IMG/VR virus record: IMGVR_UViG_2778261456_000009
Span: 1 to 39,770 of that record
DNA length: 39,770 bases
Origin: a virus
Taxonomy: Duplodnaviria; Heunggongvirae; Uroviricota; Caudoviricetes
Reading direction: 5' to 3' (one strand)
Part shown: positions 16,299-39,770 of the stretch, piece by piece
Layout: every line of letters starts with the position of its first letter
How positions within the stretch are numbered: position 1 is the first letter of the stretch
Notes under the pieces: generated by a model
Database searches by the model: none
What the model saw: only the letters and a program-made list of their open reading frames with translations
What the model was told of the DNA's origin: nothing
Position numbers and translations under genes: made by a program

Positions 16299-16301
16299 GG
16301 G

Positions 16302-19805: not shown

Positions 19806-20520
19806 TGAGGTCACGCTCTCCATTGCCATCATCAATACCTGCATCACGGCGAAGACGATCAGCCTCCAGAGACACCTTATCAGTGGCGGCCTTGCGGTAG
19901 GCTGTATCAGCAAATATTTTTCCTACCGTCGCAAGCGTGCCAACGATGGACTCAATACGAACTGTATTGCGCATCATTGCTTTCTCGGCGGCGCTGATAT
20001 TTTCCATCAGCATCTTCCTTTCCTGGTCCCCATTAGCATCTTCCAGCGACACCAGCCACCGACCAATATTCTCTGCAGCGACAAGGTTGTTAGCACGAAG
20101 GCGAAATAATTCGTCCTCGAGCGTCAACGCTTTAGCGTCCTCTATCACCTCATCTTTGAGCAGAAGGCGACGGGCATAACCACCGTGTTTTAATGCCTGC
20201 TGGTTACCGGGTTGGAATGGGTTAGTCGGGGGATCGGTACGCATTCCGCGTATCGGTTTCGTATCCAGTGTAGGTTCTGTTTTTGGTTGCGTACCTTTTT
20301 GTGTAAGGCCAGTAATGGCAGGCTTTCTGCTGGTACGCACTTTTCTTTTTTGCGTACCATTTTTGCAAACCTGCGTACCGCCACTGCGTACCCAACCAAG
20401 CTTTTTGGCCCTCTTCCTGATAGCCCCTTCTGTAACGCCGTATTTCTCGCCTATATCACGGAGGCTAAGGACTCCGGCCCGGTATGCCGATTCGATGGCC
20501 TCCCAGTCCGGTTTTGCCAT
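19771..20520 (-). CDS. Terminase small subunit
   Basis: 249 aa, N-terminal HTH-like segment (LSLRDIGEKYGVTEGAIRKRAKK); AAGAGGA RBS before ATG at 20520. Confidence 0.7.
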   Translation of the reverse strand: MAKPDWEAIESAYRAGVLSLRDIGEKYGVTEGAIRKRAKKLGWVRSGGTQVCKNGTQKRKVRTSRKPAITGLTQKGTQPKTEPTLDTKPIRGMRTDPPTNPFQPGNQQALKHGGYARRLLLKDEVIEDAKALTLEDELFRLRANNLVAAENIGRWLVSLEDANGDQERKMLMENISAAEKAMMRNTVRIESIVGTLATVGKIFADTAYRKAATDKVSLEADRLRRDAGIDDGNGERDLNDFYSDIQSDA

Positions 20521-20577: not shown

Positions 20578-20763
20578 TCAGTCCCGAACAAACGTAACCT
20601 TCGTGTTTGTCACTCGCCTTACAAGGCGCGCCGCTTCGCGTTGCATTTCATCGATAACTTTTGGCGTCATCGGCTGATGCGCATATTTACGTTCAATCTC
20701 TGCAAAAATCTCGTTCATCGTTTCGCTGTCTGGTGGGATAACTTCAACGTTTAATCGTGCCAT
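20578..20763 (-). CDS. Hypothetical small protein
   Basis: 61 aa from first ATG; weak RBS; overlaps Rz1 3' end. Confidence 0.3.
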   Translation of the reverse strand: MARLNVEVIPPDSETMNEIFAEIERKYAHQPMTPKVIDEMQREAARLVRRVTNTKVTFVRD

Positions 20764-21022
20764 TGGTTTGTGCTGCCCTGTTTTTCTCAAAAGTCCTGAT
20801 ATCAGCCTTATCCCTGTTGCACTGTGCTAACGCTGACAACAACGCAACATTCAGGTTAAGGCTGGCTCCCCACGTAAACGGGTCGGGTAAATCTGGCTGG
20901 GGTGTTTCAGCCGTCAGACTTGCTGGTAACGGAATGACCGGCACCGACACGTATACCGTTCGCGTATTCGTGCAACCGCTTAACTGCACCAGAAGGAACA
21001 ACACGAACAGCGCAATCATCAT
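20744..21022 (-). CDS. Rz1: o-spanin (Rz1-like lipoprotein)
   Basis: Starts MMIALFVLFLLVQLSGC (lipobox LSGC), Pro-rich; overlaps 3' part of Rz in another frame. Confidence 0.55.
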   Translation of the reverse strand: MMIALFVLFLLVQLSGCTNTRTVYVSVPVIPLPASLTAETPQPDLPDPFTWGASLNLNVALLSALAQCNRDKADIRTFEKNRAAQTNGTIKR

Positions 21023-21299
21023 CCGCAACAGCCACTTTGATATCTTCCTGGGTTCTCTGTGACTCCAGTGCGCTCTGCTGTTTTGCATGCTGGTTAGCCT
21101 CTATAACTGTATTGATGATTTGCAGTGATTGCAGGACGTTACTGGTAATGGCTGTTGCAGATTCAGCATTTCGTACAGCCTCATCAGCGCGCTCCTTTTC
21201 GTGCTGATATTTGCTGTAGTAATGCCCGGCAGACCAGATAAAAGAACCGATGACGGTAACAAAGAAGGCAACAATAACCAGCTTATATCTCAGCTTCAT
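20907..21299 (-). CDS. Rz: i-spanin (Rz-like)
   Basis: 130 aa; N-terminal TM helix, coiled-coil-like periplasmic domain; directly after endolysin. Confidence 0.65.
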   Translation of the reverse strand: MKLRYKLVIVAFFVTVIGSFIWSAGHYYSKYQHEKERADEAVRNAESATAITSNVLQSLQIINTVIEANQHAKQQSALESQRTQEDIKVAVADDDCAVRVVPSGAVKRLHEYANGIRVGAGHSVTSKSDG

Positions 21300-21759
21300 T
21301 TACCCCCCCACCAGCTTCTTTAAATCGGGCAATCAGGTCACCGATTCTATGTTCATACTGACCGTAACCAGCGCCCGGCAACGAAGCCCAGATATTGCTG
21401 CAACGGTCGATTGCCTGACGAATATCGCCGCGGTCAATCATCGGTAAAGCGCCACGCTCTTTAATCTGCTGCAGCGCTACAGCATCCTGGCTTTCTGGAG
21501 AAAAATCTTTCAGACCAAGTTGCTTGCGGTAGGCATCCCACCAGCGTGAAAGAAGCTGGTAACGTCCGGCGGCTGTTGATTTGAGTTTCGGATTTAGCGT
21601 GACAAGTTTGCGGGGGTGATCGGAGTAATCAGTGAACAGTTCGCCACCGACAATAACATCATAACCGTGATTTCTGGTTTTCTGCCGTCCGTTATCTGTT
21701 CCTTCTGACCATGCCACCATATCAAGGAAAGCTTTACGCTGGGAATTAAGTGCCTGCAT
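21283..21759 (-). CDS. R: Endolysin, lambda R-type lytic transglycosylase
   Basis: Near-identical over most of its length to recalled lambda R (NSQRKAFLDMVAWSEGTDNGRQKTRNHGYDVIVGG...); AGGAG RBS. Confidence 0.9.
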   Translation of the reverse strand: MQALNSQRKAFLDMVAWSEGTDNGRQKTRNHGYDVIVGGELFTDYSDHPRKLVTLNPKLKSTAAGRYQLLSRWWDAYRKQLGLKDFSPESQDAVALQQIKERGALPMIDRGDIRQAIDRCSNIWASLPGAGYGQYEHRIGDLIARFKEAGGGVNEAEI

Positions 21760-21762
21760 TAA

Positions 21763-22098
21763 TTACTCCTTATGGGCACCGAACTTGTTACCGATGACCC
21801 TCATTGCCGCACCACGAATAGCATCAACACCAATCAGCCCCACCCCACCACCAATGGCAACAGAAAGTGATTTAGGCCATCCGACATACTCAAGCGCGGA
21901 TGCAAAGGTCAGCGTCAGGGCACCACAGAGCAAAATCTCAAGCGTTTTTCGTTTCCAGCCCCCACCACCGCCAAAATAGGCGATGCGCAAACCAGCCATA
22001 ACGATCGACATAATCACTGCGCCCAGCGGAGTGTCTCCACGCCACCAGCTCTGAAACAACTCCAGCCAGTCCGGCCAGGTATTTGGGTTATGAGGCAT
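21763..22098 (-). CDS. Holin
   Basis: Small protein with two hydrophobic helices and charged C-terminus directly upstream of endolysin; ATG at 22098 has GAGGTGA RBS, upstream in-frame ATG at 22122 has none. Confidence 0.65.
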   Translation of the reverse strand: MPHNPNTWPDWLELFQSWWRGDTPLGAVIMSIVMAGLRIAYFGGGGGWKRKTLEILLCGALTLTFASALEYVGWPKSLSVAIGGGVGLIGVDAIRGAAMRVIGNKFGAHKE

Positions 22099-22221
22099 TT
22101 CATCATCTCTCACCTCGCACATATCGCGGGTGCAAATTGAGGGAATAAAAAATCCCCGAATATTCCAGGAGCGGAAACGGGGAAAGGCGTTGCACTAAAT
22201 GGGTCTGTCTGCGGCCTTAAA

Positions 22222-22248
22222 TAAAAAACCCCGGCAAATGCCGAGGTC
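22222..22248 (-). terminator. Intrinsic terminator in late leader (proximal to holin)
   Basis: Minus strand CCTCGGC-ATTT-GCCGGGG followed by TTTTTTATTT. Confidence 0.5.
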
Positions 22249-22470
22249 AGTTAATCGTTGCCGCTGTGAGTGCCGCAGCGCACTATCTCTTTATCAGGCC
22301 ACTTACGCGTTAAACCAGGTGCCAACCGTAACTCAGTGATGCTTTACGCTTCCTCTCCCTCACTACGTCGCCATGGGAGCCCGACCAGATTAACGCTGTC
22401 GTCACGTTGCCAATATATGGCATCCAATGCATTCTTTTTATTTAGCTATTTCATTTTTTCTATCCGTCAG

Positions 22471-22498
22471 AAACAACAAAACCCGCTCAATGGCGGGT
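22471..22498 (-). terminator. Intrinsic terminator in late leader (tR'-like, proximal to Q-like gene)
   Basis: Minus strand ACCCGC-CATTGA-GCGGGT followed by TTTTGTTGTTT. Confidence 0.5.
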
Positions 22499-22582
22499 TC
22501 TGGTAAAGTTCATGCGCTTGGTTCGCCTCGCGATACAGCTTTGCGAAGCATACCGAAATTGAAGCAGTTTATGCGTAAAAAA

Positions 22583-23125
22583 TCAAGCTATTTTTTGAGC
22601 AAATGATTCTCGCATGGGAATATATAGGACATACTCAGCAACTGCCAACCAATTAGCAATTCGCTTTTCGCATGTGCTAAAACACCACTCAGGATGTGCA
22701 TCATTCAGCAATTCAGCCATTTTGCGCTTAGTCATCCCCCGCCCTTCATACCGTTGCCGGAGGACACTAATCAATCCAGGATGCTCTGCCAGCACCTCAC
22801 TTATGACTCGATCAATACATAACGCCTCTGCATCAGTACAATGCGCCAGCCAGGTCTTTTGCTTGCCATTGATCATCTCTCGCAAAAACGCTTCCAGCTC
22901 AATTTTATCCATTCCCGCTTTTTTCATTCTGCGCAGGGCTTCATTGATGGCTGTTTTCGTCAATTTTTTGGATGCCAGCAACTGGTTAAACATATTCCCC
23001 GTCTTACCGCCGCCAATATACGACCAGCGCCCCCACATGCGCAGTTTTCCCTGAATCCAGACACTTTCCAGCGTGGTGAGACGAAGGTGTTCCCCGCTTT
23101 TGCCTGTATTTGTTGGGTAAATCAT
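22583..23125 (-). CDS. Putative late-gene antiterminator (Q-like) by position
   Basis: 180 aa from ATG at 23125 (ATGA overlap with upstream gene); occupies Q position between nin-like genes and late leader; family not confirmed. Confidence 0.45.
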   Translation of the reverse strand: MIYPTNTGKSGEHLRLTTLESVWIQGKLRMWGRWSYIGGGKTGNMFNQLLASKKLTKTAINEALRRMKKAGMDKIELEAFLREMINGKQKTWLAHCTDAEALCIDRVISEVLAEHPGLISVLRQRYEGRGMTKRKMAELLNDAHPEWCFSTCEKRIANWLAVAEYVLYIPMRESFAQKIA

Positions 23126-23412
23126 AAATAACCTTCCTTTCTCCAGATTTCTTGCGTACGAAAAACACCTTCTGCGTGCATCAGGCGTAATTCTTCTTTG
23201 GTGTAATCGCTGGTTTTTACCCGCCCGTCGATTAAATCGTGGCACGAGCTACAGGCAATCGCTGCCTGCATATCGTGTGGCTTTATCGCTGTTCCGCACG
23301 TTCCCGCCAGTCGGTAATGCGCCAGCACAGACGTTTCGGGATTGTGATTGCAGTAGCCAGGGATTCTGACCTGGCACATCTGGCCCCGCGCTGCTTTACG
23401 TAAATCCACCAT
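23122..23412 (-). CDS. ybcO: YbcO-like Cys-rich DUF1364 protein
   Basis: 96 aa, matches recalled DLP12 YbcO pattern (DLRKAARG..CQVRIPG.CN.NPETSVLAH...IACSSCHD). Confidence 0.7.
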   Translation of the reverse strand: MVDLRKAARGQMCQVRIPGYCNHNPETSVLAHYRLAGTCGTAIKPHDMQAAIACSSCHDLIDGRVKTSDYTKEELRLMHAEGVFRTQEIWRKEGYL

Positions 23413-24570: not shown

Positions 24571-24726
24571 TTACTCCTCAGATTCGTAAGCTGTGAAGAC
24601 AGCGACCTCCGTCTGGCCGGTTCGGATTCGTACCTCGCAGAGGTCTTTCCTCGTTACCAGTGCCGTCACTATGACGGTTAAACAGATGACGATCAGGGCG
24701 ATTAACATCGCCTTTTGCTGCTTCAT
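24571..24726 (-). CDS. hok: Hok/Gef-family type I toxin
   Basis: 51 aa MKQQKAMLIALIVICLTVIVTALVTRKDLCEVRIRTGQTEVAVFTAYESEE, near-identical to recalled HokD/RelF and Gef; AAGGAG RBS. Confidence 0.85.
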   Translation of the reverse strand: MKQQKAMLIALIVICLTVIVTALVTRKDLCEVRIRTGQTEVAVFTAYESEE

Positions 24727-24783
24727 AGCCTGCTTCTCCTTGCCTTTCGGCGCGTAAGAGGCTAACCTACATGTGCAAGTCAT
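24571..24783 (-). CDS. mok: Mok-like in-frame leader ORF of hok
   Basis: In-frame 19-codon extension from ATG at 24783 (MTCTCRLASYAPKGKEKQA-), analogous to mokC/hokC in-frame arrangement. Confidence 0.4.
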   Translation of the reverse strand: MTCTCRLASYAPKGKEKQAMKQQKAMLIALIVICLTVIVTALVTRKDLCEVRIRTGQTEVAVFTAYESEE

Positions 24784-24972
24784 AGATATGGCCTCAGATT
24801 AATGTTAAGCGTCTTGCCGGACGCGTAATGTTAACTGGGGCTTTTCTCTATCTGCCTTTTGGTGTTCATGCCTGAGACAGATAGCCTCAAGCACCCGCAG
24901 CAATTCTACTTAACTCTCGCTTTACCGCAAACCGTTTTTACCCGATATGGGAATTCCCATATCGTAATGAAT

Positions 24973-25192: not shown

Positions 25193-26023
25193 TCATTGGC
25201 GCACCTCCTGCGGCGGTTCTGGTAGCGGCATCCAGTGGGTTACTCCGTCAATTGGTTCATCGTCGTCGTACTCCAATGCGGCTATATAGAACCCGTCACG
25301 ACGAGAATAAGAAATCCCGGACATTACAATGCCATCCGAAACAACAATAATGTCACCCGTTTCTTCCGGCATTCGCTCACTACAGCTTATCCAACCATCC
25401 GGAGTTACCGGAAGCGAGAACGGCAGCACATCTCTGTGAACAAGTTTTTGCTGTGACAGGTTATCCAGAACTTTCTGTACTGCTGCATCACCGAATACAC
25501 CAAGCGCATCTGCCATAACTCCTACAACCTGATAAGCCTCAGCGCATACCGTGGATAAACCATCCGGAATTACCGGAGAGTTGGTTGACGTTTCCGAGGT
25601 TTCCCGAAAATTATTGGTTGACGAATCCTTATTTTCCCGAAAGTTTCCAGCCTGAAGCATTGCGGCGCGGCAGGCGTTCCAGCCTCTCACCTCTGCAATA
25701 GCGGCAACAGCATCAACCGCGTACATGCTAAGAGGATTAGGCATTGGTTTTTCTTCCGGTACTACTGGAACGGGTGGAGCGGCGTAGACTTCAATAATCC
25801 CATTATCAATAGGCCATTCTCCATCCTTGAGGTAGTCACTTGTGCCGTCAACTTTCTGTTCTGCAATGTGGAATGCACCTATTGGTTTTGCTTCCAGCGA
25901 TACCAGTGCAATTCGTGCCAGTTCCTCCGCTTCTTCTGCTGGCAGTACAACGTTGCTACCCGGTCCGTATGTTTCGCGCCACTGCTTGATTGTCAGCAGT
26001 CGCTCTTTGGTTATAGTGGTCAT
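25193..26023 (-). CDS. DUF551-type C-terminal domain protein
   Basis: 276 aa; C-terminus (GFYIA...THWMPLPEPP) matches recalled DUF551 signature; internal NFRE..STN tandem repeat; AAGGA RBS. Confidence 0.6.
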   Translation of the reverse strand: MTTITKERLLTIKQWRETYGPGSNVVLPAEEAEELARIALVSLEAKPIGAFHIAEQKVDGTSDYLKDGEWPIDNGIIEVYAAPPVPVVPEEKPMPNPLSMYAVDAVAAIAEVRGWNACRAAMLQAGNFRENKDSSTNNFRETSETSTNSPVIPDGLSTVCAEAYQVVGVMADALGVFGDAAVQKVLDNLSQQKLVHRDVLPFSLPVTPDGWISCSERMPEETGDIIVVSDGIVMSGISYSRRDGFYIAALEYDDDEPIDGVTHWMPLPEPPQEVRQ

Positions 26024-26033
26024 TTGTTAGTCC

Positions 26034-26789
26034 TTAAACTGCCAGTTGCAATTGCATTTCAAAGCGGTCGCGTTGTTCACAATACGCAAGAGAACCAGGG
26101 CTATTGTGTGCCTCAATCCGTTCTACCATTAATGCTGCGCGTGTCTCTTTACTTGCAGGTGCATAAGCCCCAGACCAGGCTTTATCAATACCGATGTTTC
26201 GAGCGACGTTCGTACTATCTGCGCTGGCTAAGGGTAATTTTGTGAATATCAGCGGATTTAACATGCGCAATCCATGTAGTTTCGTAACCGGCTGACCATG
26301 CTCATCAACAATGTGACGAATCAGGTCTTTCATTCTGGCTACCGCAAGAGTTGGGCGCTTTACGTCATAGTCTCCACAACTACCGATAGCCACTCGCGGA
26401 AACTCATTGCACAAATGAATAAACCGCTCGTCACTTTCATTCATGTGCCACACTGGAACGCCAGATAGTTTTCCGTGAGGCCACTCATTCAGAAGCGCAT
26501 CATTTTCCTCCTCTCCGCCATCAATAACATCCGGGATAATGGCAAAATCGAATCCTGGGTGATTCTTCCAGCGAGCGACAAACTCGTAGTAATCGCTCCA
26601 GTCGATTTTGTTTTTGCCAGCTGCTTTCCAGGCGGTGAATGCACCGTTGTCCAGCGCGAACGACTGACAGTATTCAGCCGCGAGATTGATCTGTCCTGAA
26701 TGCGCAAAACTGATAAACGCATGCCGCCCTTTCCATGCTCTCATTGCGCACGTATCAGGAGTAATAGGCCCACCGTGATAGTGAATCAT
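26034..26789 (-). CDS. Conserved phage protein of unknown function
   Basis: 251 aa from ATG at 26789 with AGGAG RBS (track start 26822 is TTG); globular enzyme-like composition. Confidence 0.55.
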   Translation of the reverse strand: MIHYHGGPITPDTCAMRAWKGRHAFISFAHSGQINLAAEYCQSFALDNGAFTAWKAAGKNKIDWSDYYEFVARWKNHPGFDFAIIPDVIDGGEEENDALLNEWPHGKLSGVPVWHMNESDERFIHLCNEFPRVAIGSCGDYDVKRPTLAVARMKDLIRHIVDEHGQPVTKLHGLRMLNPLIFTKLPLASADSTNVARNIGIDKAWSGAYAPASKETRAALMVERIEAHNSPGSLAYCEQRDRFEMQLQLAV

Positions 26790-26790
26790 C

Positions 26791-27339
26791 TCACTCTCCT
26801 TTGATGCGAATGCCTGTTGCAATGCTGTTTATGATGCTGTCAGTGCATGGGGTAGAAAGCTGGGCATCTCCAGCAATTTTCATGACCTCAACATCTGCAT
26901 ATCGAATACCGAGGTGTATCAGACCGGCTATACCTGACTTAAGCCGAGCATTTTCCATAAACAGATCCTTTGCCCGCTGTTTTTCTGCCTCAAGCTCAAC
27001 GCGCAGCTTCCCTACCGTTAGCGCAATATCCTCGTTCTCCTGGTCGCGTGATTTGATGTATTGCTGGTTTCTTTCCCGTTCATCCAGTAGTGCCAGCACG
27101 GTAGCTGGGTTAACCTCTGCTATGAATTCAGCGTTTGCATAAGCCTGAGCATCTGTTTCAACCAGGCAGTTAACGTGACATTCTGCAATTACGCCACCGG
27201 GTTCTCCTTTCCATTTTTGACAAACAAAAACTCCTGTTATATTCCCATGCTGATTGACCGATGTATGCCCTACGATGTAGCTCCCTTTCGTTGCCTTTTC
27301 TGCCGCTTCACGCAGTGCCTGATAGTTAATTTTGCTCAC
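26791..27339 (-). CDS. Ead/Ea22-like protein
   Basis: 182 aa, GTG start with AGGAGG RBS; N-terminus [16 protein letters not shown] shared with neighbour paralog; coiled-coil middle. Confidence 0.55.
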   Translation of the reverse strand: MSKINYQALREAAEKATKGSYIVGHTSVNQHGNITGVFVCQKWKGEPGGVIAECHVNCLVETDAQAYANAEFIAEVNPATVLALLDERERNQQYIKSRDQENEDIALTVGKLRVELEAEKQRAKDLFMENARLKSGIAGLIHLGIRYADVEVMKIAGDAQLSTPCTDSIINSIATGIRIKGE

Positions 27340-28684: not shown

Positions 28685-29431
28685 TCACTTCGCAATTCCT
28701 GGCTGGACGACATTCGGACGCCAGCTCTCCCAGTTAAAATTCACCCATCGCCCGCCGTTCATGGTCATGCGATCCATAATCCGCTCGCCGAGCAATGTTT
28801 TCATGGCCTCATAGTTCAGGTTTGTCAGCATCCCCACGCTGCGCATCGACGCTGTCCGGCGATCAACAATCTGGTGCAGCACCACCTGCTCGTTTTTTGT
28901 CTCGCGCTGAATGCCAATTTCATCAAGAACCAGCAGATCCACTTGGCACAGTTCCCGCAAAAATTTTTCGCCTGATTGCCCGTCGTCATAGCTGGCGTGT
29001 AGAGCACTCATGACATCAGCCACGGTAACCACAATCACTGTCTGGCCATCTTTCAGCAGGCGATTCCCGATAGCCGCCGCCAGATGGTTTTTTCCGGTAC
29101 CAGGTTTTCCGCTGAACGCAAAATTTGTACACCCGGTCATCAGTTCATCAGCGATAGATTTCGCCTGGTTCAACGCGTATCGCTGACCGTCGTTCTGCAC
29201 CTGGTAATTCGCAAACGAGCATTTGCGGTGCAATGGCTGGATGCCAGAGCGATTCAGAATTTTTTCCACCCGCAACTGACGATTCTGACGGTTGATCTCC
29301 TCACAACGTTTCTGGCCTTCGGAAAGTTGCCACTCGCGCCACTCCGCTACCGTTTTGAATGGGGCGGTTACATGTGGCGGGGCCAGTCTGCGGATACGTT
29401 CAAGAATGCCTCCTGCCGCAATATTTTTCAT
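28685..29431 (-). CDS. DnaC-like helicase loader
   Basis: Walker [16 protein letters not shown] and Walker [10 protein letters not shown]; directly downstream of initiator gene. Confidence 0.85.
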
Positions 29432-29437
29432 GGTCAG

Positions 29438-30568
29438 TTACCCCCTGAAGCCTGGCGGGATCGCACTATCCGGTAACGAGACGGTGTTAACCTGTCGGAG
29501 TAACGTCTCAGGTCGAACACCTTTTGGCGCGAACAAGCCCTGGTATTCATTGGCGATGCTGTGTCGAATCACCTGCTCAGGTGAAAAACCCTGCTGGCGG
29601 AATTTTTCCAGCTCCCGTATCGCCCCGTTAGCGCCCTGCTCCGTTCGAATTGGTTTTCGCAATGCCTGCCTGAACTGGACCCACTCATGCCAGAGTGTTT
29701 CCGGCAACCAATCGGGCAGAGCAACTGACAACGGGTCGAATTTTTTCTGGCGAACCGCCCCACCGATAACCAGAATTCCCTGCTCGGTGTGCCTTGCGAT
29801 ATCACTGCGCCGCAAGACACATATCCCGGTTTCAACAGCACCGATTTTGAGCAATGATTTTTGTCGTGGAGAATTTCGGTCAAGTTCGATCCCACACCGG
29901 ACACCGTTCCTGTCAGTCACGACGATATCAATCCGCCCTCCGCAGCCGTCTCCACGCTCTGGTACCGGATACTCACGACAGACATCCAGGCCAGCAGCCT
30001 GCAACGCCGCCACCGCAGAATTACAAAATTCTGCTGCAGTACCGCCAGACAATCTCCCCTCAAGCACTCCAGCCACAAAATCCCGAAACTCCCTTCCGGA
30101 AGGGAAGGGTTTGGGATGGGTTAGATCAGTATTTATATCTTCCTCTTCCTCTTCCTCTGGTAACGCTTTTTGATCCGTTTGTGTAACGCTGCCAGCGTTA
30201 CCTTTTCGTTTCAGTTCGCGTATTTTTGTTACTCGCTCGTTTGTAACCGCCCGTTTTTTAGAGCTTTTCCCGTTATGACGTTCAAAGTTAGGTAGAGAAA
30301 GCCCACCGTCATTTTCGACCAGCCATCCAACCTGAATTAACGCATCAGCAAAACCAGCCATAAAAGTGATGCGATCTATTGCACTTTTTGTAACGCCGCG
30401 AGCGTTACAATCTGCATTACCGTCTATCATTTGTTGATCCGCCCATGCCCAGAAGCGAATAACCTTCCCTAATGCGGCATCTGGATCAATATTCAGAATC
30501 TCAGCAAGCCTGAATATTTCCGGCTTATCCGGCGTAATAACCTCGAGCTTTATCCAGTTTGAAGCCAT
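29438..30568 (-). CDS. Replication initiation protein (replisome organizer N-terminus, DnaT-like C-terminus)
   Basis: 376 aa; acidic linker (EEEEEED); C-terminal region resembles DnaT-like domain of lambdoid O-type proteins; followed by DnaC-like gene. Confidence 0.7.
   Translation of the reverse strand: MASNWIKLEVITPDKPEIFRLAEILNIDPDAALGKVIRFWAWADQQMIDGNADCNARGVTKSAIDRITFMAGFADALIQVGWLVENDGGLSLPNFERHNGKSSKKRAVTNERVTKIRELKRKGNAGSVTQTDQKALPEEEEEEDINTDLTHPKPFPSGREFRDFVAGVLEGRLSGGTAAEFCNSAVAALQAAGLDVCREYPVPERGDGCGGRIDIVVTDRNGVRCGIELDRNSPRQKSLLKIGAVETGICVLRRSDIARHTEQGILVIGGAVRQKKFDPLSVALPDWLPETLWHEWVQFRQALRKPIRTEQGANGAIRELEKFRQQGFSPEQVIRHSIANEYQGLFAPKGVRPETLLRQVNTVSLPDSAIPPGFRG
30183..30201. repeat. 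19-bp perfect palindrome GTAACGCTG-C-CAGCGTTAC (copy 1 of 3)
   Basis: Read directly; inside initiator gene about 125 codons from its start; a related GTTAC-N10-GTAAC element lies at 30228-30247. Confidence 0.5.
30389..30409. repeat. Palindrome TGTAACGC-CGCGA-GCGTTACA (copy 2 of 3)
   Basis: Read directly; inside initiator gene about 55 codons from its start. Confidence 0.5.
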
Positions 30569-30645: not shown

Positions 30646-31068
30646 TCAATGCACTACGACAGAATCGCCGGGCGACCCACCACCGCTGAAATGTGCTTTC
30701 CGGTAAACGGCCTGTACTGCATCATCATGCGCATCAATTGCCGTACTCAACGCTTCCTGCGCCGCCAGTAATGCACGGCGTTCCAGGGTATCGAAGATGC
30801 AGAGTCGGTGACGCAGCTCGCGCGGAAGAATTGCCAGAACCGCAGGGATGAGTTTCTGAATTTTTTCCCTTTGCGCTTTCGTTTCACCTTTCAACCAACG
30901 GTGATAGATATTCTGCTGATTGTTCCAGTCCTTGCCTGGTACAAGGGGCAATTCGCCGCCCCCCTGGCGCAGATATTCTTCAGTAATTGCGTTAGCGACC
31001 CACGCCTGCCCTTTTTCGGCTGCCAGGGCTAACAACACTGATTCGATGTGCTCATGCCTGATTTTCAT
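30646..31068 (-). CDS. ydaT: YdaT-like (CII-position) protein
   Basis: 140 aa, near-identical to recalled Rac YdaT (MKI.HEHIESVL.ALAAEKGQAWVANAITEEYLRQGGGELPLVPGKDW...); ATGA overlap with upstream cro-like gene. Confidence 0.65.
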   Translation of the reverse strand: MKIRHEHIESVLLALAAEKGQAWVANAITEEYLRQGGGELPLVPGKDWNNQQNIYHRWLKGETKAQREKIQKLIPAVLAILPRELRHRLCIFDTLERRALLAAQEALSTAIDAHDDAVQAVYRKAHFSGGGSPGDSVVVH

Positions 31069-31310
31069 GAATCAACCGCTCCTATGCTGTTTTCGCTATG
31101 CTTACCGTCTGGGGGGAATACATCGTCAAGTCCACAATGAGCACCAAGCCGATTAAGGGTAGAAACAATTTTTCTGCACTCCTCTAGCCCAGGGGTACGA
31201 AAATTTGCTTCGTAATTTGCCAGTCGGCTTTGTATCCACCCTAACTGAACAGCAAGTTGTCTTTGAGACAGCCCAAGCTGTTTTCGATATGTTGAAATTT
31301 TGTTCATCAT
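31065..31310 (-). CDS. Cro-like HTH regulator
   Basis: 81 aa with HTH (LGLSQRQLAVQLGWIQSRLANYE); AGGAGG RBS; divergent from repressor gene. Confidence 0.65.
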   Translation of the reverse strand: MMNKISTYRKQLGLSQRQLAVQLGWIQSRLANYEANFRTPGLEECRKIVSTLNRLGAHCGLDDVFPPDGKHSENSIGAVDS

Positions 31311-31329: not shown

Positions 31330-31391
31330 TCACATTTCGTGAGTGAGATCAACTACAGATACGTGAGTACCGCCAATTTCACACATCGTGA
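31330..31391. promoter_or_regulatory. OR-like operator cluster with divergent promoters
   Basis: TCACATTTCGTGA (31330-31342), TACAGATACGTGA (31354-31366), TCACACATCGTGA (31379-31391), centres 24-25 bp apart; minus-strand -35 TTGATC / -10 ATAATA flank site 1; TAAAAT (31392-31397) 7 nt before repressor ATG implies leaderless mRNA. Confidence 0.5.
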
Positions 31392-31404: not shown

Positions 31405-31794
31405 ATGAAAACGATTGCAGAACAAATAGGCGAGCGCCTAAAAGCCACTCGCCTAAATCGAGGATTAAGTATGGGAAACCTGGCAAAACTATGTGGTTGG
31501 TCAGGTTCTTCTCGTATTGCTAACTACGAAGCTGGCACCAGGAGTGTGGGGGCTGAGGATGCGATCATCCTCGGCCAAGTACTAGGCATTTCCCCCGCAG
31601 AATTAATGTTCGGTGAACAGGAAAACACGTACTCATGGTTAAATGATAACCAGAAAAAAATGCTAGAGCTGTTTAATCAGCTCCCGGGATCAGAACAAGC
31701 ACGCATGATTGATCTGTTCGAAATCCGTCTTCAAGAGCTTGATGAGTATGTGGAAAAATATCTAAGAAGCAGGCAACAGAAAAAATCCTCCTAA
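31405..31794 (+). CDS. CI-like prophage repressor
   Basis: 130 aa from first ATG; N-terminal HTH (RGLSMGNLAKLCGWSGSSRIANYEAG); divergent to cro-like gene; followed by strong terminator. Confidence 0.7.
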   Translation: MKTIAEQIGERLKATRLNRGLSMGNLAKLCGWSGSSRIANYEAGTRSVGAEDAIILGQVLGISPAELMFGEQENTYSWLNDNQKKMLELFNQLPGSEQARMIDLFEIRLQELDEYVEKYLRSRQQKKSS

Positions 31795-31825
31795 ACCTTT
31801 AATCTCCCTCGATTCCAATCAAAAA

Positions 31826-31853
31826 GCTCTCGCTATTAGCGAGGGCTTTTTTT
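31826..31853 (+). terminator. Intrinsic terminator of repressor gene
   Basis: GCTCTCGCT-ATT-AGCGAGGGC followed by TTTTTTTG. Confidence 0.65.
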
Positions 31854-31882
31854 GTCCATCAAAAATCCAAAAACAACATTGC

Positions 31883-31919
31883 TCACATATTGAGTTGACA
31901 AATCACTCACGATATGTGA
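31883..31919. promoter_or_regulatory. OL-like operator pair with -35 hexamer (candidate early-left promoter)
   Basis: TCACATATTGAGT (31883-31895) and TCACGATATGTGA (31907-31919) flank TTGACA (31895-31900); outer 10-bp arms GCTCACATAT / ATATGTGAGC are exact reverse complements; -10 not convincing. Confidence 0.4.
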
Positions 31920-32098
31920 GCATTTGTCATATCCAAACAACGCCCCACCAGAGAACGGCAGGACAATACCTCGAGTTATCCAGCCACTGAACAGGGCTAA
32001 GTAGCCAGCCTGAGGCATACGAACATGACGGCAGTTGTTGATTGATACAAAGCGCAGTAGATAAAACGTTCCGCCACCCGGCGTTAAGGGGAAAAAAG

Positions 32099-32317
32099 AT
32101 GGTTGGTGAAGATCTGGTTGTTATTAACGGTCAATTGTGCAGCAAAGATGTGGCAGCCATGCTTATTAGCAAGGTTCTTCCAACTGTGCTGGAGGTCATT
32201 GCAGAAAAAGTAAAGGCTGGTCGTCCAGACAAGGAAGTTGAAGAGGCGGCAAAAACAGTTGTTCATGCCGCTACAGAAGCAATTATTTTGAAGAGCCTAG
32301 TTTCGCCCAAGCCTTAA
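32099..32317 (+). CDS. Hypothetical early-left protein
   Basis: 72 aa from ATG at 32099 preceded by AAGGGG; first ORF after OL-like region. Confidence 0.4.
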   Translation: MVGEDLVVINGQLCSKDVAAMLISKVLPTVLEVIAEKVKAGRPDKEVEEAAKTVVHAATEAIILKSLVSPKP

Positions 32318-32477
32318 GTGAATCGGCGCTTTTTTTAGCATCACGTTCATTGAGTAGTGACAAAAACTCATTCTCAGCATTCTCGATTTCCGAGAAAAAT
32401 TCTTGATGAGTTGTTTCTCGCTGCGATCTGATGCTGAAAGCTAAAGCAAGTAGCCAGGCTTTGTCTTTATTATCCAT
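32283..32477 (-). CDS. Hypothetical protein (weak call)
   Basis: 64-aa antisense-oriented ORF in early-left region; no strong RBS checked. Confidence 0.2.
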   Translation of the reverse strand: MDNKDKAWLLALAFSIRSQRETTHQEFFSEIENAENEFLSLLNERDAKKSADSLKAWAKLGSSK

Positions 32478-32872
32478 AGGAATACCTTATTACTGGTTGT
32501 GTGAGAACTCCAGTATACCACCGAGCCTGAAGTGGTAAAAAGACAGGCGCACAACACGAAGGCGCATTTCCGGTATTCATAAAGAGTCGGTCTTGTCTGT
32601 TAAATTTAAATGGTGGGAGTGCGCCTCCGGTTGTAAATAACGACATTGCTATGTGTAGTCTTTGGCGGCATCAGTTCTACTCCGTGGCTGCCCTGCCGCC
32701 CCTTTTTAAAGTGAATTTTGTGATTCGGTGAATGCGGCTAAGCGCACGCGGCACAGTTAAAAGCATCAGTGTTATGGGTGGATTATCCGGCGTTAATTGT
32801 TAACTGGTTAACGTCACCTGGAGGCACCAGGCACCGCATCGACAAAATTCATTTGTAAAAATGGAGATAATT

Positions 32873-33094
32873 ATGATTGCTCATCACTTCGGAACTGATG
32901 AAATACCACGTCAGTGTGTGACCCCTGGCGATTATGTTCTTCATGAAGGTCGGACATATATCGCCTCGGCAAACAATATTAAAAAGCGAAAACTTTATAT
33001 TCGTAGCCTGACTACAAAAACATGCATTTCTGACTGCATGATTAGAGTCTTCCTCGGTCGTGATGGTTTACCTGTAAAGGCGGAGTCATGGTAA
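32873..33094 (+). CDS. kilR: KilR, FtsZ-inhibiting killing protein
   Basis: [73 protein letters not shown] matches recalled Rac KilR; GGAG RBS. Confidence 0.9.
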
Positions 33095-33264
33095 TGACTA
33101 AGAAAATAAAATGTGCTTATCACCTTTGCAATAAAGAAATTGAAGAAAGCAAAATCATTACAAGACCACTTCATTTCATGCGTGGAGTTATACCAACGAC
33201 GGAAATGAAAAAATATTGTAGTGAAATCTGTGCCGAAAAAGACCAGATGGCACACGAACTTTAA
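33094..33264 (+). CDS. ydaE: YdaE-like zinc-binding protein
   Basis: 56 aa [12 protein letters not shown]...KYCSEICAEKDQMAHEL; found by hand (below track cut-off); ATG overlaps kilR stop. Confidence 0.8.
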   Translation: MTKKIKCAYHLCNKEIEESKIITRPLHFMRGVIPTTEMKKYCSEICAEKDQMAHEL

Positions 33265-33338
33265 TTAACTGACTATCCGAAACTGAATTTATGCCAGCAA
33301 TGGCAGGGATTCGCTCAACCTTAATTAAGGAGAAAAAC

Positions 33339-33608
33339 ATGATTACCAGTTATGAAGCCACTGTTGTTACTACTGATGACATTGTTCACGAAGTTACCCT
33401 GGAAGGAAAGCGTATTGGCTACGTGATTAAGACAGAAAATAAAGAAACCCCATTCACTGTGGTTGATATCGACGGTCCATCAGGCAACGTTAAAACACTT
33501 AACGATGGTGTTAAAAAAATGTGTCTGGTGCACATAGGAAAGAATCTGCCCGCAGAAAAAAAAAGCCGAATTTCTGGCAACTCTGATTGCAATGAAATTA
33601 AAAGGTGA
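33339..33608 (+). CDS. racC: RacC, with C-terminus altered by poly-A length
   Basis: MITSYEATVVTTDDIVHEVTLEGKRIGYVIKTENKETPFTVVDIDGPSGNVKT... matches recalled RacC to AEKK; A9 run (33556-33564) gives SRISGNSDCNEIKR instead of AEFLATLIAMKLKGEI; AAGGAG RBS. Confidence 0.7.
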   Translation: MITSYEATVVTTDDIVHEVTLEGKRIGYVIKTENKETPFTVVDIDGPSGNVKTLNDGVKKMCLVHIGKNLPAEKKSRISGNSDCNEIKR

Positions 33609-33613
33609 AATCT

Positions 33614-33644
33614 GAAAAAAAGAAAGCCTGCACACTGTGCAGGC
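33614..33644 (-). terminator. Antisense-oriented intrinsic terminator upstream of recE
   Basis: Stem GCCTGCAC/GTGCAGGC (8 bp, 3-nt loop) followed on the minus strand by TTTCTTTTTTTC; no U-run on plus strand. Confidence 0.4.
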
Positions 33645-33714
33645 CTGAGTGAAGAACCTGGGACATTTATTCATCACTCGCATTAATTTTAATCTGAGTT
33701 GAGGTTAAAAAACA

Positions 33715-36372
33715 ATGAGCACCGATAAACAAGTTTACCCACTGTATTACGAAGCAAAAAATGACAAAGTAAGAAAACGTCTCGGTATTAAAGGCGGTTT
33801 CTACTGGGCTGAAGCGAAAAAATTATCCATTGCCATCTCCCGTGGTGCTGTTGCGATTGACGATGCTGGCTACGATGAAGATGACTTTAAAAAACCTGTT
33901 CGCGTCAATTTGCCCGTTGTTGATGACCTTCCACCAGAAGGCGTATTTGATACGGAATTCTGCAACCGTTACGAAAAAGGCGGGGAAGATGGCATCACAA
34001 TGGTATTTATCGCGCCCTCATCCTCTGCGCAGGACAAACCAGCCAGCACTGACAATACCAATGTTAATGGCGAAGACATGACGGAGATTGAGGAGAATAT
34101 GCTACTCCCGATTTCCGGTCAGGAGCTGCCCATTCGCTGGCTTGCTCAACACGGCAGCGAAAAACCGGTAACGCACGTTTCACGCGACGAACTACAGGCA
34201 TTACACATTGCACGAGCTGAAGAACTACCAGCTGTTACTGCCCTGGCTGTTTCCCACAAAACCAGCCTGCTCGACCCGCTGGAAATTCGCGATCTCCACA
34301 AACTGGTGCGTGATACTGACAGAGTTTTCCCTAATCCAGGCAATTCAAGCCTGGGGCTGATGACTGCTTTTTTCGAAGCATACCTGGACGCAGACTACAC
34401 CGATCGCGGTCTGCTGACAAAAGAGTGGATGAAAGGAAATCGTGTTTCACGCATCACGCGCACGGCTTCCGGCGCTAATGCTGGCGGCGGGAACCTCACC
34501 GATCGCGGCGAAGGTTTCGTTCACGATCTGACGTCACTGGCGCGCGACGTAGCCACTGGCGTACTGGCTCGTTCAATGGACGTGGACATTTATAACCTTC
34601 ATCCGGCACACGCTAAACGTGTCGAGGAAATTATCGCTGAAAATAAACCGCCCTTTTCTGTTTTCCGCGACAAATTCATCACCATGCCTGGCGGGCTGGA
34701 TTATTCCCGCGCCATCGTGGTTGCGTCCGTAAAAGAAGCACCAATTGGGATCGAGGTTATCCCCGCACACGTCACTGAATATCTTAACAAAGTACTGACT
34801 GAAACTGATCATGCCAACCCTGATCCAGAAATCGTGGATATTGCCTGCGGTCGTTCCTCTGCCCCGATGCCGCAGCGTGTAACAGAAGAAGAAAAACAGG
34901 ATGATGAAGAAAAACTGCAACCATCTTGCGCAATGGCAGATGAACAGGCAACGGCTGAAACAGTGGAACCGGATGCAACTGAACATCATCAGGACACGCA
35001 GCCGCTGGATGCTCAGTCACAGGTAAATTCTGTTGATGCGAAATATCAGAAACTGCGGGCAGAACTCTATGAAGCCCGGAAAAACATTCCGCCCCAAAAT
35101 CCTGTCGATGCAGACAAATTACTGGCTGCCTCTCGCGGAGAATTTGTTGAAGGGATTAGCGACCCGAATGATCCGAAATGGGTTAAGGGGATCCAGACCC
35201 GCGATTCTGTGTACCAGAATCAGCCAGAAACGGAACAGAACGACCCAAATACGCAACAAAACGAGCCAGAAACGAAACAGCCTGAGCCAGTAGTGCAACA
35301 ACAGGAAACGGAGAAAGTTTGCACCGCCTGCGGTAAGGCTGGCGGCGGCAACTGTCCTGACTGTGGCGCGGTGATGGGCGACGCAACGTATCAGAAAACC
35401 TTTAATGAAGAAAATCAGAATGAATATCAGGAAAAAGGTCTGGAGGAAATGGAAGGTGCTGAACATCCGCACAATGAGAATGCTGGCAGCGATCCGCATC
35501 GCGATTGCAGTGATGAAACTGGCGAAGTCGCAGATACCGTAATCGTAGAAGACATAGAGCCAGGTATTTATTACGGAATTTCGAATGAGAATTACCACGC
35601 GGGTCCCGGTGTCAGTAAGTCTCAGCTCGATGACATTGCTGATACTCCGGCACTGTATTTGTGGCGTAAAAATGCCCCCGTGGACACTACAAAGACAAAA
35701 ACGCTCGATTTAGGAACCGCTTTCCACTGTCGGGTACTTGAACCGGAAGAATTCAGTAACCGCTTTATCGTAGCACCTGAATTTAACCGCCGTACAAACG
35801 CCGGAAAAGAAGAAGAGAAAGCGTTTCTGATGGAATGCGCAAGCACAGGAAAAACGGTTATCACTGCGGAAGAAGGCCGGAAAATTGAACTCATGTATCA
35901 AAGCGTTATGGCTTTGCCGCTGGGGCAATGGCTTGTTGAAAGCGCCGGACACGCTGAATCATCAATTTACTGGGAAGATCCGGAAACAGGAATTTTGTGT
36001 CGGTGCCGTCCGGACAAAATTATTCCTGAATTTCACTGGATCATGGACGTGAAAACCACAGCGGATATTCAACGATTCAAAACGGCTTATTACGACTACC
36101 GCTATCACGTTCAGGATGCATTCTACAGTGACGGTTATGAAGCACAGTTTGGCGTGCTGCCAACTTTCGTTTTTCTGGTTGCCAGCACAACTGTTGAATG
36201 CGGACGTTACCCGGTTGAGATTTTCATGATGGGCGAAGAAGCAAAACTGGCAGGCCAGCAGGAATATCACCGCAATCTGAGGACCCTGGCTGACTGCCTG
36301 AATACCGATGAATGGCCAGCTATTAAAACGTTATCACTGCCCCGCTGGGCTAAGGAGTATGCAAATGACTAA
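33715..36372 (+). CDS. recE: RecE, exonuclease VIII
   Basis: 885 aa; from about residue 110 near-identical to recalled K-12 RecE, including C-terminal nuclease domain; first about 100 aa diverge from recalled sequence. Confidence 0.95.
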
Positions 36373-37174
36373 GCAACCACCTATCGCAAAAGCCGATCTG
36401 CAAAAAACCCAGGGAAACCGTGCACCAGCAGCAGTAAAAAATAACGACGTGATCAGCTTTATTAATCAGCCATCAATGAAAGAGCAACTGGCAGCAGCTC
36501 TCCCACGCCATATGACGGCTGAACGAATGATACGTATCGCCACCACAGAAATTCGTAAGGTTCCGGCGCTAGGAAACTGTGACACCATGAGTTTTGTCAG
36601 TGCGATCGTTCAGTGTTCACAGCTCGGCCTTGAGCCAGGTAGCGCCCTCGGCCACGCATATTTACTGCCTTTTGGTAATAAAAACGAAAAGAGCGGTAAA
36701 AAGAACGTTCAGCTAATCATTGGTTATCGCGGCATGATTGATCTGGCTCGCCGTTCTGGTCAAATCGCCAGCCTGTCAGCCCGTGTTGTCCGTGAAGGTG
36801 ACGAGTTTAGTTTTGAATTTGGCCTTGATGAAAAGTTAATACACCGCCCGGGAGAAAACGAAGATGCACCAGTGACCCACGTCTATGCTGTCGCAAGACT
36901 GAAAGACGGAGGGACTCAGTTTGAAGTTATGACGCGCAAACAGATTGAACTGGTGCGCAGCCAGAGTAAGGCTGGTAATAACGGGCCATGGGTAACTCAC
37001 TGGGAAGAAATGGCAAAAAAAACGGCTATTCGTCGCCTGTTTAAATACCTGCCCGTATCAATTGAGATCCAGCGCGCGGTATCAATGGATGAAAAGGAAC
37101 CACTGACAATCGATCCGGCAGATTCCTCTGTATTAACCGGGGAATACAGTGTAATCGATAATTCAGAGGAATAA
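36365..37174 (+). CDS. recT: RecT, single-strand annealing protein
   Basis: 269 aa starting [24 protein letters not shown]..., matching recalled RecT; ATG overlaps recE stop; track start is over-extended. Confidence 0.95.
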
Positions 37175-37230
37175 TTCAGCTAGGCGGTGTAATGCACCGC
37201 CAACGTGAAATATTTTTTATGAGAACAATT

Positions 37231-37425
37231 ATGAGATATGACGATGTTAAACCATGTCCGTTTTGTGGTTGTCCATCAGTAACGGTGAAAGCCATTTCAG
37301 GATATTACCGCGCGAAGTGTAACGGATGCGAATCCCGAACCGGCTATGGTGGAAGTGAAAAAGAAGCACTCGAACGATGGAATAAACGAACCACTGGAAA
37401 TAATAATGGAGGTGTTCATGTATAA
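37231..37425 (+). CDS. ralR: RalR (Lar), restriction alleviation protein
   Basis: 64 aa MRYDDVKPCPFCGCPSVTVKAISGYYRAKCNGCESRTGYGGSEKEALERWNKRTTGNNNGGVHV matching recalled RalR. Confidence 0.9.
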   Translation: MRYDDVKPCPFCGCPSVTVKAISGYYRAKCNGCESRTGYGGSEKEALERWNKRTTGNNNGGVHV

Positions 37426-37606
37426 AATTACCGCCACTATTGAAAAAGAAGGTGGCACTCCTACTAACTGGATAAGATATTCAAAATCTAAATTAACGAA
37501 ATCAGAATGCGAAAAAATGCTCTCAGGGAAAAAAGAAGCAGGCGTTTCCAGAGAGCAGAAAGTAAAACTGATAAATTTTAATTGCGAGAAACTTCTGTCC
37601 TCGTGA
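37418..37606 (+). CDS. ydaC: YdaC-like protein
   Basis: 62 aa MYKITATIEKEGGTPTNW...; overlaps ralR stop by 8 nt; gene order as recalled for Rac. Confidence 0.7.
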   Translation: MYKITATIEKEGGTPTNWIRYSKSKLTKSECEKMLSGKKEAGVSREQKVKLINFNCEKLLSS

Positions 37607-37661
37607 GTTGCATTGTATTCAAATTAAAACTTCATAGCTGATTATTAAAAATCAACCACAC

Positions 37662-37690
37662 CCGCCAGTATTCTGTATATTTACTGGCGG
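37662..37690 (+). other. Stem-loop upstream of xis
   Basis: CCGCCAGTA-TTCTGTATATT-TACTGGCGG, 9-bp stem, no U-run; 17 nt before xis RBS. Confidence 0.35.
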
Positions 37691-37706
37691 TCATATCGTA
37701 AGAGGT

Positions 37707-37994
37707 ATGGCAATGAATCTTGTGACACTCAAAACGTGGGGGAAACTCAGATATCCGGATAACCCACCATCAATATCAACGCTGAGACGATGGGCAAGGA
37801 ATGGAAACATTTATCCTGCACCTGAACTACACGGGAGGAGTTACAGGGTGGTTCCGGAAGCTTTCTATATCAACCCAAATAAGGTTGATACCGATATAAC
37901 ACACCATCAACCTAATGGGCGACAAGGGAGAGACGGTCCGTTACTGGAGAAGTTAAAACATGCAGCGGAAAAAATACGATCCCAATTTGCCTAA
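37707..37994 (+). CDS. xis: Excisionase (Xis-like)
   Basis: N-terminus (TLKTWGKLRYPDNPPSISTLRRWARNGNIYPAPELHGRSYRVV) parallels lambda Xis; AAGAGG RBS; 3' end overlaps int start as in lambda. Confidence 0.6.
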   Translation: MAMNLVTLKTWGKLRYPDNPPSISTLRRWARNGNIYPAPELHGRSYRVVPEAFYINPNKVDTDITHHQPNGRQGRDGPLLEKLKHAAEKIRSQFA

Positions 37995-39036
37995 AAACTT
38001 AACATATCGAAGGAGGGACAAAGCATATTACTGGCGCAACCCTCTGACGAAAGAAGAATTTACACTAGGTAAAATTTCAAGAAGAGATGCAGTAGCGCAG
38101 GCAATTGAAGCAAATCATTATATATACAAAAACTACTCTCCTGCTGCCTTAATTGAAAAACTTAAAGGGTTCGACTCATTTACTATGGCAGACTGGATTG
38201 AACGTTACAAAACGATTCTTATAAGGAGAAAAGTGTCCAGAAATACTTATAAAATTCGGGTAAATCAACTGGAGACAATAAAAGAAAAATTAGGAGGGAT
38301 TTTACTGACAGAAATAACCACTCGCCATATTGCCGAGTTTCTTGATTTGTGGATTGAAGGAGGGAAAAACACGATGGCAGGATCAATGCGTTCTGTGTTA
38401 TCTGATATGTTCCGCGAGGCCATTGTTGAAGGACGTATATCTCAAAATCCAGTAACGCCAACAAGAGCACCGAAAATAGTAGTTACAAGAGAACGGCTGA
38501 AACTAAAGACATACAACTGCATCAGGGAGGCAGCAGATCAACTTCCGGCATGGTTCCCATTAGCTATGGATTTAGCCCTTGTAACAGGACAACGTCGCGA
38601 AGACATAACGAATATGCGGTTCAGTGATATTTATGATGACCGTCTCCACATCAGGCAAATTAAGACAGGAATGATGATTGCTATCCCTCTGTCACTCAGC
38701 CTTCCTGTCGCTGGTCTACGGCTTGGTACAGTAGTTGAACGATGCCGCCTGGTAAGCCGGGGAGATTATCTAATCAGTGCCGGGATTAGAAAAAACAGCC
38801 CTGACGGCAGCATTCACCCGGATGGCCTGACAAAAAAATTTGTCGCAGCCAGAAAATTAACAGGTATCCAGTTCAGTGAAAACCCACCAACTTTTCACGA
38901 GATCAGAAGTCTGGCTGGACGATTGTACAAAGAAACATGTGGAGAAGAATTTGCCCAGCGCCTACTTGGTCACACATCGGAGAAGACAACAAAAATGTAT
39001 CTTGATGAGCGAGAAAAAACGTACTTACTGCTCTGA
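37960..39036 (+). CDS. int: Tyrosine integrase, lambda Int family
   Basis: 358 aa; alignable by eye to lambda Int (PPNL, FGLG, catalytic region with [11 protein letters not shown] and [13 protein letters not shown]). Confidence 0.9.
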
Positions 39037-39133: not shown

Positions 39134-39174
39134 AGACGCTTGCAACTAATTGATTTTAAATACAATTAAAAAGA

Positions 39175-39201
39175 GACCGAATACGATTCCTGTATTCGGT
39201 C
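39175..39201. repeat. Hairpin GACCGAATAC-GATTCCT-GTATTCGGTC, with a direct copy of the arm at 39090-39100
   Basis: 10-bp perfect stem; AAAAAGACCGGAATAC at 39085-39100 repeats the left arm context. Confidence 0.4.
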
Positions 39202-39360
39202 CAGGGAAATGGCTCTTGGGAGAGAGCCGTGCGCTAAAAGTTGGCATTAATGCAGGCTTAGTTGCCTTGCCTTTTAAGAATAGATGACGACGCCAGGTTT
39301 TCCAGTTTGCGTGCAAAATGGTCAATAAAAAGCGTGGTGGTCATCAGCTGAAATGTTAAA

Positions 39361-39428: not shown

Positions 39429-39770
39429 TTAACAGAGTTTTTCAGCTCGTTCTATAAACGGTGCCAGACTCATTTTTTCGCCGGGATTGTTAGGATCATC
39501 AATCTGAATCACCGAAATGGGTTGGGCTTTAGTCTTCCCACTGGCAACTTCCTTTTGTGCGATATCGTTTAAAGGATACTGCACGAGGGTACTTGGGTTA
39601 ATGACATACAAAGCATTACCCGGTCTGCAAGTCAGCATCACCTCTTCGCGATTAAACGCCCATTTGTCTTTACCCACTTCAAAACGACTGACGGTAATCA
39701 CCTGCGGTGCAGCCAGCGCCGCTGCAGAACTGGTGAGTAACAGAAACGTCAGAATACTTTTTTTCATCAT
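39429..39770 (-). CDS. Small exported protein (host-like, signal peptide)
   Basis: 113 aa, cleavable signal peptide [20 protein letters not shown]; ATG at window edge; tentatively resembles enterobacterial YebY-type protein (from memory, unconfirmed). Confidence 0.65.

Follow-up and report, generated by a model that had tools for sequence, protein, structure and literature searches.

Does a prophage that carries the recombination genes of the Escherichia coli K-12 Rac element beside an apparently intact set of virion genes represent a surviving form of Rac? The question is raised by IMGVR_UViG_2778261456_000009, a tailed-virus record (Caudoviricetes) that was analysed over its whole length of 39,770 nucleotides (nt), hereafter the window. 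An earlier note on this DNA read the 7.6-kb interval at 31405-39036 as a complete Rac-type recombination and exclusion module attached to complete-looking virion and lysis genes, and suggested an inducible relative of Rac. We compared each gene with the annotated K-12 Rac prophage. The interval is very probably the leftward early (PL-type) operon and integration module of a mosaic temperate E. coli prophage of about 40 kb, and we are just as confident that this prophage combines lambdoid regulation with contractile-tail virion genes like those of the Salmonella phage SEN34. It is an ordinary mosaic phage with Rac-family recombination genes and not a revived Rac. What the note observed is partly confirmed, and its interpretation is partly supported.

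The reach of the Rac homology

The nine genes that gave the interval its Rac character (kilR, ydaE, racC, recE, recT, ralR, ydaC, xis and int) are all intact open reading frames (ORFs) on the + strand, where the note had placed them (Table 1). From kilR to rcbA (ydaC) they follow the K-12 Rac order kilR-ydaE-racC-recE-recT-ralR-rcbA, with protein identities of 87-99% except for ydaE (73%). DNA homology to K-12 Rac begins at about 32555, upstream of kilR, and ends at the C-terminus of rcbA. The overlap of recE and recT, the antisense RNA RalA, and the genes ydaT and ydaV are shared with K-12 Rac as well.

Within this block, the recombination genes are well preserved. RecE scores 1857 bits against its NCBIfam equivalog model (cut-off 1269), matches Pfam Exonuc_VIII and DUF3799, and has a C-terminal PD-(D/E)XK nuclease domain of the K-12 type. 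RecT scores 467 bits (cut-off 296), and the two genes share 8 nt where recE ends and recT begins, an arrangement also seen in K-12. A PD-(D/E)XK RecE with an overlapping downstream RecT is what characterizes a RecET recombination system, and the window carries such a pair.

Two further elements of the block involve small RNAs (sRNAs). RalR is a DNase toxin that also alleviates restriction; the window protein scores 166 bits against the NCBIfam RalR equivalog (cut-off 113). RalA abuts the 3' end of ralR in the same relative position as in K-12, and the two together have the make-up of the RalR/RalA type I toxin-antitoxin system. A DicF-family sRNA lies about 170 nt upstream of kilR. The homologous place in K-12 Rac holds the annotated kilS RNA, which falls below the Rfam DicF threshold, whereas the window sRNA passes it. 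Since the DicF-family sRNA stands directly upstream of kilR, two inhibitors of FtsZ are adjacent.

A collinear early-left operon of about 5 kb, together with ydaT and ydaV, is what one would expect if the prophage were an orthologue of K-12 Rac, of the same lineage but undecayed. Beyond the block the two elements part, and the claim of a complete Rac-type module holds only for about 32555-37606. The integrase has no similarity to IntR of K-12 Rac by alignment, and the excisionase has only 28% alignment identity to XisR, so that xis and int cannot be counted as Rac genes. The attachment (att) site is in sdsR/ryeA rather than ttcA. Position 31405, taken as the start of the Rac region, coincides with the start codon of a gene for a DicA-like repressor whose sequence aligns with no part of RacR; the divergent cro-like gene gives no alignment with YdaS, and the repressor is predicted to be heteroimmune to Rac. 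The ydaU-like initiator resembles its Rac counterpart only in its C-terminal 102 residues and has a different N-terminal part, although YdaV is 97% identical to K-12.

The exclusion function named in the note is without basis, as sieB, ydaF and ydaG have no tblastn match in the window. Two small ORFs, of 72 and 64 residues, occupy their place in the alignment. We regard an undecayed orthologue as very improbable, and for the element as a whole the idea is refuted. As judged from these alignments, recent ancestry with K-12 Rac is limited to 32555-37606, ydaT, ydaV and the C-terminus of ydaU. The remainder of the mosaic prophage was gained through the module exchange typical of lambdoid phages.

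RecE itself is mosaic, as the note had suspected and as alignment with K-12 RecE bears out. Residues 108-885 are about 90% identical to the K-12 protein, with a nearly identical nuclease domain, whereas residues 1-107 (33715-34035) have no convincing counterpart in it. Of 5426 complete E. coli genomes, 829 contain the initial 391 nt of the recE region with a coverage of at least 80%; many of these matches are about 82% identical and lie in genes annotated 'exonuclease'. One such gene belongs to a dicB-ydfD-exonuclease-xis-int prophage (dicB/Qin type) beside potC. Its 813-residue product (WP_000102136) is 68% identical to the window RecE over the first ~610 residues, residues 1-107 included, and its gene likewise precedes xis-int. 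It differs in its C-terminal nuclease domain, which is unrelated to the PD-(D/E)XK domain of RecE, and in having no recT after it.

An N-terminal part of ~610 residues shared by proteins with unrelated C-terminal domains argues that the long RecE N-terminal part is itself a shared module. By this comparison the window RecE carries a common N-terminal variant, and it is K-12 that differs at the extreme N-terminus. In E. coli ECOL-18-VL-LA-PA-Ryan-0026 (L007, 4028-6469), the 'exonuclease' of the dicB/Qin type has this N-terminal region ahead of an unrelated domain, so that the RecE N-terminal region acts like a module joined now to one nuclease domain and now to another. The exact 885-residue RecE occurs in at least 24 public contigs, and the six contexts shown have the same recT-ralR-rcbA-xis-int-yebY neighbours. 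This alternative N-terminus could be compared with that of K-12 RecE in recombineering.

Virion genes, attachment site and relatives

The Rac-type block adjoins morphogenesis and lysis genes that look intact, as the note had said and unlike the decayed K-12 Rac. The late genes of K-12 Rac all differ or are absent here: none of the genes of its late region is in the window. By their sequences, the virion genes are of the SEN34-like myovirus type, not the lambda-like genes left in K-12 Rac (tape-measure ynaA, lomR and the side-tail-fibre gene stfR). The virion and packaging module comprises tail-fibre assembly, tail fibre, baseplate, tape-measure, tube, sheath, head, portal, and large and small terminase genes. 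The genes from the baseplate wedge to the portal (1563-18402) are full length, mostly with 93-100% protein identity to vB_EcoM-611R5. The large terminase subunit TerL (PBSX type) and the small subunit TerS are full length and 99% identical to those of E. coli P4, and the lysis cassette spans 20744-22122 on the - strand. The claim of complete virion and lysis genes is therefore sound for the lysis, terminase, head and tail genes, all full length compared with relatives, but the window starts within the virion module, inside an oppositely oriented tail-fibre assembly gene.

Three phages share the head, sheath, tube and baseplate module. SEN34, a Brunovirus, has it at about 80% nucleotide identity and matches 70% of window positions 1-20000 (79.7% identity). 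The E. coli prophages vB_EcoM-611R5 and vB_EcoM-683R1 also carry it, 611R5 at 97% nucleotide identity, and 683R1 is among the best matches to the structural module of the window. The window is built to the same design, a lambda-like early region joined to a predicted myovirus morphology. SEN34 does not appear in the megablast hits for the recET interval, and 611R5 has another terminase and another early region. The gene content of the window is that of a SEN34-like lambdoid myovirus related to Brunovirus.

Could the juxtaposition of a Rac-like early region and a SEN34-like virion module be a chimera of draft assembly? The window does match the start of a draft contig, NNVU01000008.1 (GCA_002485865.1), that is broken in the repeat-prone tail-fibre region. 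Relatives in complete genomes refute the idea: the same architecture is contiguous over 24.8 kb in at least 13 complete E. coli genomes, and it lies between pphA and yebY in complete genomes including strain P4, where it runs from one gene to the other. We give a chimera next to no probability. The mosaic prophage is common: near-identical copies are present in numerous E. coli genomes, and the 7.6-kb interval is covered by at least 40 complete ones.

The integration module is of the lambda type. The integrase matches lambda Int structures from end to end (E 3.6e-72, residues 8-353 against 10-348, catalytic tyrosine included), and its Pfam domains Arm-DNA-bind_1, Phage_int_M and Phage_integrase correspond to the arm-binding, core-binding and catalytic regions. 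In an alignment with K-12 the junction of prophage and host falls at about 39168, next to yebY; K-12 Rac sits in ttcA (K-12 annotation; PMC4632033). In E. coli P4 the core AAAAAGAGACCGAAyACGATTCC is present at both ends of a prophage of about 41 kb between yebY and pphA, while the window itself holds only one copy, that of attR.

The sdsR/ryeA locus is a published hot spot of prophage insertion, where the att site of 23 bp lies at the end of ryeB (PMC7380047). PhiW104, a different phage in a different host, is inserted in the same way at Salmonella ryeA/ryeB (sdsR), in the last ~23 bp of ryeB/sdsR and inside ryeA, and such an insertion likewise regenerates the sdsR 3' end from the phage. In the window the phage end regenerates full-length sdsR, and the upstream part of ryeA should fall at the left junction. 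Insertion here may alter expression of this sRNA pair, as reported for a Salmonella phage.

None of this is new in kind, as full-size Rac-like prophages, in which a Rac-type early region is joined to a full late-gene set (PMC5917428, PMC4632033), and inducible SEN34-like phages have already been published. Among the former, the O157 prophages are reported to be able to replicate and transfer (PMC4632033). Sp10 and CP-933R differ in integrating at ttcA, and just 36% of the 7.6-kb interval has a match in Rac-SA53, with 93% identity. The result has little importance beyond correct annotation. The K-12 Rac genes form one exchangeable module, which in wild E. coli is joined to other integration, immunity and virion modules, so the gene label 'Rac' does not identify a Rac prophage.

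Regulation and activity

How might such an operon be controlled? A palindrome lies on each side of the repressor gene, one between it and the cro-like gene and a matching one at a putative early-left promoter downstream of the repressor terminator (31829-31843). The pattern TCAC-N4/5-GTGAG has 3 matches against 0.9 expected. The layout is that expected of right and left operators, and has modest support as a putative assignment. The early-left promoter is assigned from consensus-like sequence, and a promoter scan found more promoter-like sites in shuffled sequence than in the real one.

In the mechanism that we propose, bound repressor would keep the early-left operon silent, and this silence of a repressor-bound operon would be why recET is cryptic in K-12. 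The DicF-family sRNA, kilR to rcbA, xis and int all lie on one strand, followed by the attR core, and derepression would yield one leftward transcript running from DicF through int. Host division would then be blocked twice, with DicF pairing with ftsZ mRNA and KilR inhibiting the FtsZ protein. Phage recombination would be served by RecE, a 5'-3' exonuclease, and RecT, an annealing protein; RalR would be expressed under RalA control, and Xis and Int would recombine the attL and attR cores and so excise the phage. From there the rightward operon would carry the lytic cycle to its end, through the cro-like gene, ydaT, the initiator, ydaV, the accessory genes and the Q-like antiterminator, and on through lysis, terminase, head and tail.

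Is the prophage active? That it is inducible is plausible, and to judge from its genes we consider activity about evenly balanced. The fuller proposition, that it is a currently active, plaque-forming SEN34-like myovirus carrying the whole Rac early-left operon and a full-length RecE with a Qin-type N-terminus, we hold tentatively, at somewhat less than an even chance. To our knowledge, RecET, KilR with DicF, and RalR/RalA are so far known mainly from the dead K-12 Rac; an active phage would offer them a natural live-phage setting.

Several points weigh against an active phage. The repressor is without a self-cleaving peptidase domain, the window has no LexA box of the form CTGT-N8-ACAG, and no antirepressor gene was found in the window. 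The ORF6N gene, a possible antirepressor that relatives carry between Q and the holin gene, is absent; positions 22123-22582, from the Q-like gene to the holin gene, hold only 460 non-coding bases. The left end of the prophage (attL, the remaining tail-fibre segment and a probable invertase) lies outside both the window and the draft contig. racC is frameshifted, and missense defects may be present elsewhere.

Most of these points would also suit a cryptic, non-inducible remnant like K-12 Rac, with intact-looking genes that yield neither excision nor particles, as would the decay seen in members of the family: an IS3 element splits the integrase of the relative in strain Z1323CEC0004, and another close relative has a truncated tail protein. 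Opposed to it, all late genes that look essential have their full length and 93-100% identity to relatives, and Int, Xis and the attR core show no damage. Induction is on record for related phages: SEN34, a temperate myovirus whose early genes are lambda-like, was induced with mitomycin (PMC5261728), and a urinary coliphage that was induced spontaneously has vB_EcoM-683R1 as its closest match (PMC12945033). We give a remnant of this kind serious weight, though not as much as an even chance. The ON470xxx records were considered as further induced phages and rejected, as their paper shows PHASTER-predicted prophages; they support gene integrity, not viability.

The racC change is real. The run at 33556-33564 has nine A residues (A9), whereas K-12 and strain 300709 have A8 by DNA alignment. 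The frame shifts after residue 76, the last 15 residues are replaced, and RacC matches only positions 1-77 of 91 of the PHROG and NCBIfam models, just below the NCBIfam cut-off. Two complete genomes share the A9 allele in an exact match over a 126-nt segment, and sibling contigs with identical RecE have A8 in otherwise identical sequence. This distribution points to a recent homopolymer slip or a sequencing error and not to an old lesion. We know of no essential role for racC. No other lesion was found in the window, which has a coding density of 92.5%; most of its stretches without coding sequence contain sok, DicF, the putative PL region or the late regulatory region between Q and holin.

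Accessory genes and the left edge

Table 1. Positions of the features discussed, with the evidence for each
Feature	Position	Strand	Evidence or remark
Second tail-fibre assembly gene, C-terminal fragment	1-192	+	87% identical to residues 84-146 of the 611R5 GpG-type assembly protein
Virion and packaging module	164-20520	-	24 proteins full length, 85-100% identical to vB_EcoM-611R5
241-residue cargo ORF in baseplate module	4610-5335	-	No Pfam, PHROG, NCBIfam or PADLOC match
Rz1/LysC-like spanin	within 20744-21088	-	Pfam LysC 3-68/69
Rz-like spanin	20907-21299	-	DUF2570 match below cut-off
Endolysin	21283-21759	-	95% identical over full length
Lambda-S-type holin	21763-22122	-	Pfam Phage_holin_3_1 2-99/99
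Q-like late antiterminator (DUF1133)	22583-23137	-	Pfam DUF1133 1-175/176, E 3e-107
hok/sok type I toxin-antitoxin	24571-24896	-	Pfam HOK_GEF; Rfam sok 113.7 bits
Replication genes: 376-residue initiator and DnaC-like YdaV	28685-30568	-	K-12 alignment, PHROG
ydaT (cII analogue) and cro-like helix-turn-helix gene	30646-31310	-	ydaT 95% identical to K-12
Operator-like palindrome TCAC-N5-GTGAG	31330-31343	.	Between cro-like and repressor genes
DicA-like repressor, 129 residues, helix-turn-helix only	31405-31794	+	Pfam HTH_31; weak NCBIfam DicA match
Matching operator-like palindrome, putative early-left promoter	31906-31920	.	Just after TTGACA 31895-31900
Two small ORFs, 72 residues (+) and 64 residues (-)	32099-32477	both	phrog_23495 and phrog_22868
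DicF-family sRNA	32650-32701	+	Rfam RF00039, 60.9 bits (cut-off 48), model 1-52/52
kilR, inhibitor of FtsZ	32873-33094	+	93% identical to K-12; NCBIfam 1-73/73
ydaE	33094-33264	+	73% identical to K-12; NCBIfam profile search
racC	33339-33608	+	A9 frameshift; 91% identical to K-12 over 76 residues, then diverges
recE, 885 residues, full length	33715-36372	+	K-12 alignment, Pfam, NCBIfam
recT	36365-37174	+	99% identical to K-12; NCBIfam
ralR	37231-37425	+	98% identical to K-12; NCBIfam equivalog
rcbA/ydaC (DUF1187)	37418-37606	+	97% identical to K-12, then different C-terminal end
RalA antitoxin sRNA, antisense to rcbA	37424-37602	-	Rfam RF02694, 222 bits (against 170), full length
Lambda-type excisionase (not XisR)	37713-37994	+	Pfam Exc; 28% alignment identity to XisR
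Lambda-type tyrosine integrase (not IntR)	37960-39036	+	Pfam domains; structure match
RyeA	39164-39308	+	Rfam (host sRNA pair with SdsR/RyeB: 178 and 116 bits)
attR core	39168-39193	.	K-12 alignment; in sdsR 3' end, within ryeA; host sequence onward
SdsR/RyeB	39168-39267	-	Rfam (host sRNA pair with RyeA: 178 and 116 bits)
Host gene yebY	39429-39770	-	K-12 alignment

The accessory region, from the replication genes to the Q-like gene, includes the hok/sok pair. A 262-residue ORF with a TTG start (26034-26822, - strand) is without a match in Pfam or NCBIfam; a PHROG of 509 positions, labelled queuine tRNA-ribosyltransferase, is matched over its first half only, and the label is doubtful for this protein. 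A split gene at 25193-26822 was considered and rejected, as the downstream ORF matches different families. A tRNA scan of the window found none, and a PADLOC defence-system scan of ten small or unknown window proteins found nothing. Relatives hold different, unrelated genes in the slot at 4610-5335, which therefore looks like a variable cargo site in the tail genes.

The draft contig NNVU01000008.1 agrees with the window in gene set and in the A9 run, with recE 2 nt further along, and it ends at the left edge of the window, inside the tail-fibre region. Since window and contig both stop in a tail-fibre assembly gene, attL and the remaining tail-fibre region lie outside. By analogy with 611R5, the missing left segment probably carries an invertase. 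The tail-fibre assembly genes at 1-192 (+) and 164-1581 (-) face each other, which suggests an invertible host-range segment.

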